From: a virus
Taxonomy: Duplodnaviria > Heunggongvirae > Uroviricota > Caudoviricetes
Virus record (IMG/VR): IMGVR_UViG_2526164691_000020
Length of the DNA: 9,492 nt
Direction: 5' to 3' (one strand)
Both the position numbers and the translations under genes were made by a program. Under the pieces are notes generated by a model. That model had not been told where the DNA came from and did not search any database. It was given only the letters and a program-made list of their open reading frames with translations. Positions 1,183 through 9,127 of this stretch are shown piece after piece; the first letter of the stretch is position 1, and every line of letters begins with the position of its first letter.

Positions 1183-1314
1183 CTACAGCAATACCACAAT
1201 GCCGCAGACCAGCACCCCATCCGCCAGCACCGACATGATTCTGCTGGTGAAATCCACCATCACCACCAGAAACAGCAGGAGTGCAGCCACAGCCAGGCGC
1301 AGTTTTACCGTCAC
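1183..1314 (-). CDS. Small hydrophobic protein (43 aa, predicted single transmembrane helix), translationally coupled to the upstream TerB-like frame
   Basis: GTG start (complement of 1312-1314) overlaps the TerB-like stop in a GTGA junction; SD GGAGAA sits 6 nt upstream. Translation VTVKLRLAVAALLLFLVVMVDFTSRIMSVLADGVLVCGIVVLL, stop TAG at complement of 1183-1185. Too short for the ORF track. Confidence 0.4.
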   Translation of the reverse strand: MTVKLRLAVAALLLFLVVMVDFTSRIMSVLADGVLVCGIVVLL

Positions 1315-1805
1315 AGGTGATTCTCCAGACGAAGACCCAGAACACCGGCAATCTCTTCCAGCACCTTGCGCTCTTCCGGCTCAATTTCGCCGTCTGCCTC
1401 CGCAATGGCCACCGCCACATCCAGCACATCTTCCGCTTCACGCGTATCGTGTTTCACATCCTCGATCTCACGTAACGCCGCACGACGACCAATTTTAAAG
1501 TTCGTATCCAGCTGACCGATAATGGTTGCGCTAATCGCATTAATTTCTGACGTAAACACGGACAGCGCAGGCTGATTACGCAGTACCTGTTCGATCTTCG
1601 CTTTCTAGGAAGCCTCACATTCACCATCTGCACAGGCCACCAGGTAGGCAGCATTAATAACCGCCTGTGCCAGATCGCGTTTCTCAAACTTTCCTTTTCC
1701 GGTTAACGTGACACACCAATAACTCTTGTCGAAAAAGCCAGCAAGCTGAAAGACCGGTATTCACAACCACCAGCGCGTTTACTGTACTGGCGTGATTTCA
1801 GTCAT
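1311..1805 (-). pseudogene. TerB-family (tellurite-resistance TerB-like) gene interrupted by three in-frame stop codons
   Basis: One frame runs from ATG (complement of 1803-1805) to TGA (complement of 1311-1313) with in-frame TAA (1779-1781), TGA (1761-1763) and TAG (1605-1607). Conceptual product ...GFFDKSYW...AAYLVACADGECEAS*KAKIEQ...VAIAEADGEIEPEERKVLEEIAGVLGL resembles TerB (MSFFDK... / ...SDG...E..K...EIA..LG). The track reports only the 82-aa tail (1311..1559). Confidence 0.6.
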
Positions 1806-1829
1806 AAAAAAAACCCGCCTGGCGACGGG
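1806..1829 (-). terminator. tR'-like intrinsic terminator directly downstream of the late promoter
   Basis: Minus-strand RNA CCCGUCGCCAGGCGGG (6-bp stem incl. one G-U, loop GCCA; complement of 1814-1829) followed by U8 (complement of 1806-1813), abutting the downstream ATG. Confidence 0.6.
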
Positions 1830-1860
1830 TGTAAAAAATCTTACTAACGTCAGGCATAAA

Positions 1861-1909
1861 ACGCCCATCGTTAGGGCAAACTTACCACAGATTCGGGAAA
1901 AATCAACAA
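1861..1909 (-). promoter_or_regulatory. PR'-like late promoter with lambda-type pause/qut motif
   Basis: Minus strand: -35 TTGATT (complement of 1901-1906), 16-nt spacer, -10 TAAGTT (1879-1884), then AACGATGGG in the initial transcribed region. Compare recalled lambda PR' GGTAAATTTGACTCAACGATGGG with window GGTAAGTTTGCCCTAACGATGGG. Lies 23 nt past the Q stop. Confidence 0.6.
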
Positions 1910-1928
1910 AGCTATCTGGTCACCTTTT

Positions 1929-2750
1929 TCAGTTGTTGTTCTGCCCATGCTTCTTCAATATCAAACTGCACCACCAGCGTATCGTAAAAACGTTTAACTG
2001 TTTTTTCCATGTATCAAGAGATATGGCATCGGTTACATTACATATGGCATTAAATGCCTCCGTTGAAGGTAATCTTTCATAGCCACGACCACCACAACGC
2101 TGGCAGTCTCTGATAACAGGCATACCACGTTTTACCGACTCTTCACGATGAATGGCAACACCGCGCCCACGACAATCTTTACAGGCGGTGGAAACCTCCC
2201 CCTTCCCTCCACACTCCGGACAGGCAACTTTTACCACCTCCCTGACTTTTTTCCATTCCTCCCAGTAAGACGGATACACGCCTTTTGTGCACTTTGCCCA
2301 CACTGGCGGCTTACCATCCGGATACTGGATCTTGTTTGTAAAAACCTCGCTTTCAATAAATTTTTTTCCGTGACAACAGGGGCACTGTTTTTTGCTCGCC
2401 GCGCTACGGGCATAATCTTCAAACGCATACGAAGCCATAATACGCATCACTGCCGGTTTTATTTCTGCCGGGAGTTTTCTTAACGCCGCCACGCGATCAC
2501 ACCGACTGAGTGCATATTCTGTCAGCAATTCTGTTGCCCGCTCTCTGTCATTCATACTAATGCCCATTTTCCCAAGGAACGCAGAAAACCCCATCTCAGC
2601 CCAATTCTGTGTCATGCCCTGCGCGGCCATCACATCAGTGATACTCAGCGTATCTTTCGACGTTGAGGCCGATGCATCAGTCAGGCCGAGGGATTTTGGG
2701 GATAGTATTTCGGTAAATCTTCCAGTTTCATTTTTTGACCTGCCCTTCAA
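1929..2750 (-). CDS. quuQ: Q-like late antiterminator (QuuQ/YdfT-like) with four DnaJ-type CxxCxGxG zinc-finger repeats; start codon uncertain
   Basis: 273-codon ORF from the track (TTG start at 2750 overlapping rusA; alternative ATGs at 2630 and 2615). Motifs CPCCHGKK, CPECGGKG, CKDCRGRG, CQRCGGRG read directly. Position immediately upstream of the PR'-like promoter supports a Q role. Confidence 0.65.
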   Translation of the reverse strand: MKGRSKNETGRFTEILSPKSLGLTDASASTSKDTLSITDVMAAQGMTQNWAEMGFSAFLGKMGISMNDRERATELLTEYALSRCDRVAALRKLPAEIKPAVMRIMASYAFEDYARSAASKKQCPCCHGKKFIESEVFTNKIQYPDGKPPVWAKCTKGVYPSYWEEWKKVREVVKVACPECGGKGEVSTACKDCRGRGVAIHREESVKRGMPVIRDCQRCGGRGYERLPSTEAFNAICNVTDAISLDTWKKQLNVFTIRWWCSLILKKHGQNNN

Positions 2751-6522: not shown

Positions 6523-6536
6523 GTGACAGCCGTATT

Positions 6537-6559
6537 GTGGCCCTCATCGGGCCACTTTT
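6537..6559 (+). terminator. Intrinsic terminator of flxA
   Basis: GTGGCCC-TCATC-GGGCCAC (6537-6555) followed by TTTT. Confidence 0.6.
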
Positions 6560-6906
6560 CGCCATCAGCCTTTTCTTTAAAGACATATTATCTTTGTATC
6601 ATTTCTGATAGTTAACATTACAAGATATAAGTAATGGACGCACTCCCAATTAGTCTATTTAAATCGCCACGAGTTTAACTGACAACCCATGATCAATTAT
6701 GAATTGCAACTATTTCTGTAGTCACTTTTGTGGGGACAGTCCACAAAACTGCCAACTTCCGCTTCTTGCTCTTAGCGGACATTAGCATAGGCTATTTGCC
6801 ATAACGCCTCATTACGCGCACCGCCCAGACTGACTCAGCGCGTTTCTGGCATATCCCCGGTAAAACAAGTAACAAACCACCCGAAAATGAACACCAGAAA
6901 CGCGAC

Positions 6907-8299
6907 TTAAGAATCTACCCTATGAATGGATATGCACTCAACCGAATCGATCTTGGTTTCAATCTTTTTATCGGGATCAGGCTTCTTTTTAGGTAACTTC
7001 GGGGGCTTAACTTGCTGATGACTTTGCGTTCGGCGCGTAAGCCAGGGATGGTCAGCTTTAGGTTTAACATAGTATTTTGAGCGTAAATCAATACGGGCAT
7101 TATCCACTCGTTCATGGACACTCTTTTCATCATCCAGTGGTATAGGCTCCGGGCCATCAACATACTTTTCCCAGCCCAGCGCTTTCCCGTCATACAGAAC
7201 GTTAATTTCACCGTCAAAGTTCTCGCATACAGTAACAACCGAATGCCTAAGTCGATATCCCCGGCCCTCACTGCGTACCTGAAACGCACTGCTTTTGTAC
7301 TGGAAAGTGAGATTTTTAGACAGAACGCGCTTCGCCTGTAGGCTGAAGATATAACCCAGTTCCTCTTCAGAATGGTGCACATCAAGATGAGCATTATCAG
7401 TAGTACGAGGCGACGTAGCGAACCGGTTGTTATAGGCTTCAATAAAGGTCGGCAAGCATGCATTTGCTGTTTCAATATCACTGATATTCTGAAGCCGCAT
7501 TTCTTTGACCAGCCTGTCCTGTAGTGTCTGATTGGCGCGCTCTACCCGCCCTTTTGCCTGCGGGCTGTTGGCATGGATTGGCTCGATGCCCAGTGTCTTT
7601 ATCGCACGAGTGAACTGGGTCAGCTCACCTTCCCGCTCTGGGTTATTTACCCTGAATATACTGTGTCTATCAGAGCAGAGAGCGAGCGGTACGCCATGAT
7701 CATTAAGGTAACCCCGGAGGGTTTCCATGTAAGCCCGGGTTGTTTCAGCAGGCACAAAACGCAACGCCATCAACGCACTGGTGGCATCATCAATGAAAAC
7801 GATCAGTGTACATCTGGGGCCTCGATTTTCAAACCAGTCATGAGGTGAGCCATCAATCTGGATCAGTTCACCGTAAGATGGTCGTCGCATGCGGCGTTGA
7901 TATATACGGGCAATTTTACGTACGGCGTTCACGCCATACCCCCCTCTTCTATCATCCACTTTCTGAGAGTTTCAACGGATAAAGATAAACCGTGTATCTC
8001 ACGCAATTTTTCGCACGCAAACGTAGGTCCAAAATCAGCGTAACGGCCTTTGAGGAGTGAAATTACTGTTGCTCTGAATTCAGTAGAAAAGGAATTATTA
8101 GGACGCTTTCCACGTCGGGGGGAAACCAGACCAGAAGGCCCTTCATTTCTATACCGTTGCACCAGACGTTTAACCTGCCGAATAGAAATGCCAATGCGTG
8201 CCGCAGCTTGTTCTGAGTAATATGTCGATTAATTGACTCCTGAATAATCTGAAGTCGGTGGAGTTCCTTATGACTCATCGTAACAGTCTCTTTGATCAT
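6907..8299 (-). pseudogene. IS481-family-like DDE (rve-type) transposase, split over three frames in its N-terminal third
   Basis: Track ORFs 8063..8299 (MIKETVTMSHKELHRLQIIQ..., HTH-like), 7929..8162 (...QRYRNEGPSGL...FGPTFACEKL...) and 6907..7959 (...GELIQIDGSPHDW...FIDDATS...CSDRHSIF...ANSPQAKGRVERANQTLQ...) are pieces of one protein. One shift is near 8205-8225, another at a C6 run (7939-7944), plus a further 1-nt shift near 7915-7935. IS ends were not identified. Confidence 0.65.
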
Positions 8300-8842
8300 G
8301 AAAAATCCCCCAGAGAATTGTCTGGGGACATTTTAGAATGGTTCAAAGGGGACATTACAGCTTGGTGTTAACAATAGCCTGCTTCTCCTTGCCTTTCGGC
8401 ACGTAAGAGGCTAACCTAGATTTGCCGTTCATAGATTGAGCCTCAGATTAATGTTAAGCGTCTTGCAGGACGCGTAATGTTAACCGGGGCTTTTCTCTAT
8501 CTGCCGTTGGTGTTCATGCCTGAGACAGATAGCCTCAAGCACCCGCAGCCATTCTACTTAACTCCCGTCACCTCGCCAATATGAAATCAGTCAGAAAGGC
8601 GATCCATAAGAACAACAGCAAGGCAATAAATTGCCATTACAGCAGCAATAGCCAGCGCACATTTGAGAACCAGCACCACAACCTCCTGTATTGGACGTAC
8701 ACCAGTCCTGATAAATATGAGGCTGTCTCGTCAGTGATTCAATACAACTATTAGACTGGCCCCCTGAATCTCCAGACAACCAGTATCACTTAAATAAGTG
8801 ATAGTCTTAATACTAGTTTTTAGACTAGTCATTGGAGAACAG

Positions 8843-9127
8843 ATGATTGATGTCTTAGGGCCGGAGAAACGCAGACGGCGTACCACACAGGAAAAGATCG
8901 CAATTGTTCAGCAGAGCTTTGAACCGGGGATGACGGTCTCCCTCGTTGCCCGGCAACATGGTGTAGCAGCCAGCCAGTTATTTCTCTGGCGTAAGCAATA
9001 CCAGGAAGGAAGTCTTACCGCTGTCGCCGCCGGAGAACAGGTTGTTCCTGCCTCTGAACTTGCTGCCGCCATGAAGCAGATTAAAGAACTCCAGCGCCTG
9101 CTACGGCAAGAAAACGATGGAAAATGA
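8843..9127 (+). pseudogene. insC: IS2 InsC (orfA) with a 1-nt insertion near 9103 giving a premature stop
   Basis: [40 protein letters not shown]...KELQRLL then LRQENDGK* instead of [34 protein letters not shown], which is present in the +1 frame. New stop at 9125-9127 lies upstream of the A6G slippery site (9161-9167). Confidence 0.75.

Follow-up and report, generated by a model that had tools for sequence, protein, structure and literature searches.

Dense frameshifts in a Qin-like prophage contig of the Escherichia coli DEC9B draft genome are very probably consensus errors

Results

The window and its finished counterpart

The stretch of DNA analysed here (the window, 9,492 nucleotides [nt]) is a segment of a Qin-like cryptic prophage in which a dense series of frameshifts runs through rusA, ydfU, the antitoxin gene relB and the transposase genes of two insertion sequences (IS), and our concern is whether these frameshifts are real. 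The window is the entire contig AIGL01000010.1 (range 1-9492) of assembly GCA_000249915.2, the 2012 draft of E. coli O26:H11 DEC9B: an exact-protein look-up found its frameshifted YdfU product on that contig only, and the proteins of the contig are labelled '[Escherichia coli DEC9B]' and carry locus tags of the form ECDEC9B_54xx. DEC9B is an O26:H11, sequence type 29 (ST29), stx-negative strain (USA, 1979), for which the draft is listed as AIGL00000000 with a citation of Hazen et al. 2012 (PMC5592225). When the window was compared by megablast with 5,426 complete E. coli genomes, the sole end-to-end match was the finished DEC9B chromosome, CP074760.1 (NZ_CP074760.1), at 100% coverage and 99.8% identity. 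In the same search the window had 19 matching places across the DEC9B chromosome. Each end of the contig falls within a repeat, namely a SASA-family esterase gene shared by many prophages at one end and IS2 at the other.

The features of the window are collected in Table 1. In the order hokD-relE-relB-ydfV-flxA-ydfW-transposase remnant, with ydfU, rusA and an antiterminator upstream, the window resembles the Qin (Kim) prophage of E. coli K-12 (quuQ/ydfT, ydfU, rem, hokD, relE, relB, ydfV, flxA, ydfW), and in annotated genomes these genes bear their K-12 names. It differs from Qin in its left arm, where Q, the TerB remnant, DUF3927, the SASA esterase and the small RNAs (sRNAs) AgvB and STnc100 are of the type found in lambdoid prophages of enterohaemorrhagic and enteropathogenic E. 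coli, in having no annotated rem, and in the IS2 that adjoins the Sok region.

Table 1. Features of the window. Private denotes a change found in the draft and absent from the finished DEC9B genome; aa, amino acids.
Feature	Position	Strand	Remarks
SASA-family (nanS-like) esterase, 3' fragment	1..740	-	cut at contig end; private substitution at 599, Thr to Ala
sRNA AgvB (anti-GcvB)	888-949	+	Rfam, 96.5 bits; back to back with STnc100
sRNA STnc100	950..1139	-	Rfam, 131 bits; private 1-nt deletion after 1106
TerB-family pseudogene	1311..1673	-	internal TAG at 1605-1607, no start codon; Pfam TerB positions 2-109 of 118
Private intergenic indels	1694..1843		T5 to T4 at 1694, A7 to A8 at 1806, +A at 1843
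Antiterminator Q	1912..2731	-	broken twice: inherited A7 to A6 at 2001-2006; private 1-nt deletion after 2702
rusA	2728..3101	-	private T3-to-T2 deletion after 2961; 124 aa, intact in finished DEC9B
ydfU (DUF968)	3114..4162	-	private T6 to T5 at 3501, substitution at 3437, Ile to Val; 349 aa, intact in finished DEC9B
hokD	4901..5056	-	intact; rare allele, used to retrieve close relatives
15-bp target duplication	5055-5069 and 8374-8388		flanks of block
Candidate mobile block relE-relB-ydfV-flxA-transposase	5070..8373	-	3.3 kb; holds 10 of the 20 private changes
relE, toxin	5128..5415	-	intact
relB, antitoxin	5415..5656	-	private +T at 5579, +T at 5589 (T6 to T7), 5514 Lys to Asn; 79 aa, intact in finished DEC9B
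ydfV	5681..5987	+	private +T at 5822
Transposase, annotated as IS1202/ISNCY family (ISEsa1-like)	6959..8299	-	open 446-aa reading frame in finished DEC9B
Sok antitoxin RNA and mok region	8373..8544	-	RF01794, 99.3 bits, full-length; orphaned 5' half of hokD locus; adjoins right end of block
IS2, left part	8753..9492	+	cut at contig end; orfA from 8843; private +A at 9103
IS2 programmed slippery site A6G	9161-9166	+	motif

Differences between the draft and finished sequences

A full alignment of the draft with CP074760.1 yields 20 differences, 15 of them single-base insertions or deletions (indels) and five substitutions, or ~2.1 changes and 1.6 indels per kb. Eight bases are inserted in the draft (1806, 1843, 5579, 5589, 5822, 7921, 7939 and 9103), seven are deleted (after 1106, 1694, 2702, 2961, 3501, 6964 and 8212) and five are substituted (599, 3437, 5514, 7456 and 7676). 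The coding indels fall in Q (2702), rusA (2961), ydfU (3501), relB (5579 and 5589), ydfV (5822), the ISEsa1-like transposase (6964, 7921, 7939 and 8212) and IS2 orfA (9103), and the remaining four (1106, 1694, 1806 and 1843) are intergenic; the deletion after 1106 takes out a base that the Rfam STnc100 consensus has, leaving a gap in the alignment. At the private sites the finished genome keeps rusA, ydfU, relB, ydfV, the 446-aa transposase and IS2 orfA open.

A preliminary description of the window, made from its letters alone, had listed a -1 shift in rusA, a 1-nt shift in ydfU, two +1 shifts in relB, several shifts in the transposase, one of them at a C6 run, and a +1 shift in IS2 at 9103, and had called relE and hokD open. 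The deposited sequence bears out every one of these, the transposase shifts being +T at 7921, +C at 7939 (C5 to C6) and -C at 8212. That list was largely right; it had missed a fourth transposase change at 6964, in the ydfW/transposase C-terminus, as well as the ydfV insertion, the four intergenic indels and all five substitutions. Three of its other statements have to be amended. Q, called open, carries two frameshifts when compared with the intact 822-nt gene of strain F2_407_2_2; the TerB-like gene is indeed broken, by a single internal TAG within the Pfam TerB region rather than by three stops, a number reached only if stops outside the homologous region are counted; and the transposase called IS481-like is, by its annotation, of the IS1202/ISNCY (ISEsa1-like) type, its match to the Pfam IS481 leucine zipper lying below threshold.

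As outgroups for polarity we used six complete genomes of ~95-99% identity, eight independent assemblies with the same rare hokD allele, the copy of the 5070-8373 block on a DEC9B plasmid, and copies in other genera. Wherever an outgroup covers one of the 20 sites it has the finished state, which places 20 changes on the draft branch and none on the finished branch. The eight hokD-allele assemblies cover all nine left-arm sites and side with the finished genome throughout, as does the plasmid copy, identical to the chromosomal one, at all 10 sites within the block. Searches for the draft states themselves gave the same picture: short site-centred queries for rusA 2961, ydfU 3501 and Q 2702 found no complete genome that has them; the draft relB state was absent among 1,247 matching complete genomes, the best identity of 97.8% corresponding to exactly three differences in a short query; and the IS2 state at 9103 was absent at 18,758 matched places in complete genomes, the nearest full-length match being one gap off. 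Among ~15 billion proteins, every called product that spans a private change was found on one contig only (control products, 3-196 contigs). The exception to uniqueness is the C6 run at 7939, a natural allele in 49 other complete genomes.

The composition of the changes is equally distinctive. The ratio of indels to substitutions is 15:5 in the draft versus 16:484 pooled over three natural comparisons (Fisher p = 1e-16), in which more distant genomes were set against finished DEC9B over the same DNA and gave substitutions and indels of 31:3, 198:8 and 255:5; for close relatives the corresponding counts per 5.5 kb are 1-2 substitutions and 0-1 indels. Homopolymer runs of at least five bases account for 3.4% of the sequence yet hold six of the 15 indels (binomial p = 6e-6); a further three are in 2-3-base runs, and six in no run at all. 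The substitution at 5514 has the form of one run over-called beside another under-called (finished CTGTTTGA, draft CTGGTTGA). The changes take no account of coding: annotated coding sequence, 72.9% of the window, holds 11 of 15 indels, the genes found intact in finished DEC9B, 49.5% of the window, hold 7 of 15, and all five substitutions are non-synonymous. There is no sign of purifying selection on the private changes. They are evenly distributed over the contig (Kolmogorov-Smirnov p = 0.84), and clustering of the kind that low-quality read ends might leave was not significant (five adjacent pairs <80 nt apart, p = 0.14).

Inherited lesions and the left arm

Two lesions behave differently, in that the TerB stop and the A6 run of Q are found again in finished DEC9B and eight further assemblies. 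Draft and finished DEC9B have the same TerB remnant, which shows two amino-acid differences in F2_407_2_2; its lesion is inherited and real. The A6 run of Q is common to the draft, finished DEC9B and eight of eight hokD-allele relatives, while F2_407_2_2 has the intact A7, and the A7-to-A6 change is an inherited lesion of a grounded lambdoid prophage. The 273-aa open reading frame (ORF) that can be read through Q in the draft is coincidental: an upstream TTG and the shifted tail happen to remain open.

Other observations concern the same arm. A C3-to-C2 deletion in ydfU (reference position 3546, window ~3543) is common to four related draft assemblies, where ydfU is uncalled; since it recurs over four assemblies it behaves as a real lesion, and its site differs from that of the error in the DEC9B draft. 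A sub-threshold match to AsxR was obtained in addition to those to AgvB and STnc100. In DEC9B-type prophages rem is unannotated at 4443-4900, the interval between a 92-aa ORF and hokD, where K-12-like Qin regions have rem.

The transposase and IS2

The transposase of the block is labelled 'IS1202-like element ISEsa1 family transposase' by the Prokaryotic Genome Annotation Pipeline and has the Pfam domains HTH_28, HTH_32 and rve_3, its family being assigned by that label and those domains. Besides the insertions and the deletion given above, its private changes are a T6-to-T5 deletion at 6964 and the substitutions at 7456 (Trp to Cys) and 7676 (Tyr to Cys). The run at 7934-7939 is polymorphic among genomes: most have A2C4, five records including both DEC9B copies have A1C5, and 49 including IAI1 have A1C6. 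The C6 allele divides the transposase into a helix-turn-helix protein and a partial catalytic fragment. In the draft, C6 is probably one more homopolymer error that coincides with a natural allele.

Members of the IS3 family join orfA to orfB by programmed -1 frameshifting, and the IS2 of the window has the A6G motif; the finished IS2 is annotated 'programmed frameshift'. The insertion at 9103 was considered as this programmed site and rejected: it lies 58 nt upstream of A6G, and none of the 18,758 IS2 matches in complete genomes has it. The IS2 next to Sok is present in DEC9B and UGEG01000001.1 and absent in ABTDCF010000077.1; its insertion is recent and polymorphic within the clade.

The relBE block

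The block that carries relE, relB, ydfV, flxA and the transposase is 3,301 bp long in finished DEC9B, where it occurs in two identical copies, one on the chromosome and one on plasmid pDEC9B-1. At its termini are inverted repeats that agree at 19 of 26 positions and have no internal copy; a nested 1.6-kb IS with an inner inverted repeat of its own at the transposase end was looked for in the block, and none was found. The chromosomal copy lies upstream of hokD and the plasmid copy upstream of a Hok/Gef gene, and each is flanked by a duplicate of its own local target (ATAGCCTGCTTCTCC on the chromosome, CATCATAGCCCCTCCA on the plasmid). The plasmid copy is at ~41.9-45.2 kb of NZ_CP074761.1 (161 kb, IncI1-type), where the adjoining Hok/Gef gene is pnd-like and the surroundings are excA/hha and trbA. 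Close relatives (e.g., UGEG01000001.1) and F2_407_2_2 lack the block, and there the site is uninterrupted.

Elsewhere the same arrangement recurs. The target duplications measure 13-16 bp and involve five different target sequences. The left end of the block adjoins the start codon of a Hok-family ORF, and at the right end a full-length Sok (Rfam) adjoins the block in the window and at seven other loci, in Shigella, two Kluyvera species, a Klebsiella michiganensis plasmid, Pseudocitrobacter, Candidatus Pantoea alvi and the DEC9B plasmid. Size variants of 2.6, 3.3, 4.5 and 6.1 kb have in common a 713-bp relBE module and a ~1.61-kb transposase module, and the cargo between the two differs. The transposase-end module measures 1,610-1,631 bp (block ~1671-3301, window ~6740-8373). 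We found the transposase end in 621 plasmid records, mostly of Klebsiella and Enterobacter, and 505 of these are conjugative.

Discussion

The dense frameshifts of the window are, in our view, very probably base-calling or consensus errors of the 2012 draft contig, laid over an ordinary Qin-like cryptic prophage. Of roughly 17 lesions, 15 are draft artefact, and the remainder is ordinary prophage decay. For rusA, ydfU, relB, ydfV, the transposase, IS2 orfA and the Q frameshift at 2702 the draft changes are without counterpart in an independent sequence of the same strain, and we therefore attribute them to indel error. Such errors would generate the spurious frameshifts, one each in rusA, ydfU, ydfV, IS2 orfA and Q, two in relB and four in the transposase of the block, and would damage STnc100 as well, and beneath them would lie two real inherited lesions, the TerB remnant with its stop and missing start codon and the A7-to-A6 frameshift of Q. 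As to the physical cause, low-coverage reads of a pyrosequencing type on a small, repeat-flanked contig seem likely, because insertions and deletions are balanced, homopolymers are enriched, and the substitution at 5514 combines an over-called and an under-called run. Around that time the laboratory that produced the DEC9B draft assembled 454 Titanium reads with Celera or Illumina reads with Velvet, according to a later paper (PMC3715677), which is indirect evidence as to this draft.

The pattern shares with the spurious pseudogenes of early next-generation drafts its single-base indels, their enrichment in homopolymers, their blindness to coding, their restriction to one assembly and their absence from a finished genome; it differs in that ~40% of the indels are off homopolymers and in its indel density, 1.6 per kb, which is high for a consensus. 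Several points weigh against the attribution to consensus error. The error mechanism is inferred rather than seen in reads. The six indels that lie in no homopolymer are less typical of classic pyrosequencing error. C6 at 7939 is natural elsewhere, in the 49 complete genomes mentioned above, and comparison alone thus cannot classify that site. Finally, the error density was measured on one contig, AIGL01000010.1.

The preliminary description had left the choice between real genome decay and systematic indel error undecided and had proposed a comparison with finished relatives and a count of indels in homopolymers. The comparison could be made with the finished genome of the same strain, which has none of the 15 indels or five substitutions, and the count showed the enrichment in runs of at least five bases reported above (6 of 15, p = 6e-6). 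Error proved the right choice for the private changes, and decay for TerB and the A7-to-A6 change of Q only. One could still envision that the culture sequenced for the draft had truly gained frameshifts, through mutator subculture or in a Shigella-like manner, with the finished genome derived from an undamaged stock. The window does hold inherited pseudogenes and IS (TerB, the A6 frameshift of Q, IS2), and genuine frameshifts are seen in relatives, such as the C3-to-C2 change of ydfU in four assemblies and the transposase-splitting C6 allele of 49 genomes. However, 20 changes in 9.5 kb on one branch only would scale to ~11,000 changes genome-wide, ~8,500 of them frameshifting indels; the 3:1 ratio of indels to substitutions is the inverse of that of natural divergence over the same DNA; coding sequence is not depleted, no change is synonymous, and relB is broken twice beside an intact relE; and the private states, C6 at 7939 excepted, occur in no other assembly examined and are contradicted by the finished genome. 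In type II toxin-antitoxin systems a doubly frameshifted relB beside an intact relE would leave the toxin unopposed, which makes this arrangement biologically implausible as a real state. We thus regard real decay as very unlikely to account for the pattern. The window has in common with the IS-rich reductive decay of Shigella an IS2, an ISNCY-type transposase and a few true pseudogenes (TerB and Q), but its true lesions are few, shared by the clade and confined to a cryptic prophage, and the dense frameshifts are missing from the finished genome. The Shigella-like lineage invoked in the preliminary description is therefore not needed, the real lesions being ordinary cryptic-prophage decay and not a genome-wide process.

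Slippage within the culture that switches prophage genes on and off at contingency tracts could be considered for the six indels in 5-7-base runs, particularly as the C run at 7939 is polymorphic among strains and the A run of Q differs between lineages. For phase variation to be efficient, however, tracts of 5-7 bases are short. Nine of the 15 indels fall outside such runs, the others touch only 6 of the 58 runs of this kind, and no tract but the one at 7939 varies in the genomes examined, all of which leaves phase variation with a negligible probability; neither it nor real decay is thus given more than a very slight chance of explaining the frameshifts. A different possibility is that near-identical DEC9B copies (lambdoid prophages, the plasmid relBE block, other IS2 elements) were merged into one consensus. 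With 19 matching places on the chromosome, a 3.3-kb block present on both the chromosome and pDEC9B-1, and a contig that ends in repeats, the material for such a collapse exists, and we suspected it once the second block copy had been found on the plasmid. It was ruled out as the source of the changes in the block, where the two finished copies have one and the same sequence and 10 of 10 in-block changes of the draft are private relative to each. No exact donor of the draft relB, IS2, rusA, ydfU or Q states was found in all complete genomes, including every DEC9B replicon; this absence covers 7 of the 20 changes by searches (six indels and one substitution), plus the whole block. We consider collapse of paralogues extremely unlikely for the window as a whole. 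It is also conceivable that the draft is right and the finished genome wrong, for instance through long-read miscalls, given that long-read assemblies can miscount homopolymers and that at 7939 C6 is common while the finished C5 is in five records only. The reliability of CP074760.1 was judged by its agreement with many independent assemblies. The finished state is shared with assemblies from independent groups and methods at 20 of 20 sites and preserves every reading frame, its two block copies agree, and 9 of 15 indels lie outside runs of at least five bases; an error in the finished genome is accordingly a vanishingly small prospect. Consensus error in the draft thus stands as the explanation that we favour for the private changes.

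A separate question is what the relBE block represents. We suggest, tentatively and with the balance leaning slightly against us, that it is both a true hok-targeting, site-specific transposon and one not previously described. Such an element would insert between the Sok/mok half of a locus and its toxin ORF, and the 13-16 bp that it duplicates would take in the hok ribosome-binding site. That chromosome and plasmid of DEC9B have the block in identical form, each copy with its own target duplication, implies recent transposition on comparative grounds. The 3.3-kb insertion parts Sok (8373-8544) from the hokD ORF (4901-5056), and hokD is therefore probably uncoupled from Sok/mok control and placed downstream of relBE. 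In the literature searched, whose coverage is incomplete, we found no description of a hok-targeting relBE transposon.

The nearest known elements are those of the IS1202 family, formerly the IS1202 group of ISNCY, which have inverted repeats of ~22-29 bp and target duplications in classes of 5, 16-17 and 27-28 bp, and among them ISEsa1, listed at 1,609 bp with no target duplication detected (PMC10132070). The block resembles this family in its imperfect inverted repeats and in site-specific insertion, like that of the dif-targeting family members. Its duplications, mostly 15-16 bp, are near the 16-17 class, those of 13-15 bp being slightly short of the listed class. From ISEsa1 it differs in size (3.3 kb, with variants of 2.6-6.1 kb), in its relBE and variable cargo, and in its target, which is hok/Sok and not dif. 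The 1,609 bp listed for ISEsa1 is essentially the length of the conserved transposase-end module, and its listed boundaries may describe that module rather than the whole mobile unit.

These findings have consequences for use of the draft. The gene calls of the draft contig omit the intact relE ORF (5128-5415) and include, under the name 'qin prophage antitoxin', only a 46-aa fragment of RelB; toxin-antitoxin inventories based on them are consequently wrong in two ways. The proteins of draft DEC9B (e.g., EHW46429-EHW46440) include truncated forms of RelB, RusA, YdfU, Q, the transposase and InsC that do not exist in the strain. Pseudogene censuses, toxin-antitoxin inventories and studies of genome decay that rely on this draft would over-count, and CP074760.1 is preferable.

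The biologically meaningful lesions of the prophage are two only, a dead TerB remnant and a frameshifted late-gene antiterminator, as is typical of a grounded lambdoid prophage. If the block is a hok-targeting element, the placing of hok downstream of relBE would explain the classical 'relBEF' operon and the position of hokD (relF) in the Qin prophage of K-12, an arrangement that Pedersen and Gerdes (1999) reportedly put down to a 'major rearrangement'. Should the element be confirmed and prove new, the relBE block would be a transposon that targets hok/Sok loci on plasmids and in prophages across the Enterobacteriaceae, and would be relevant to research on both mobile elements and toxin-antitoxin systems.

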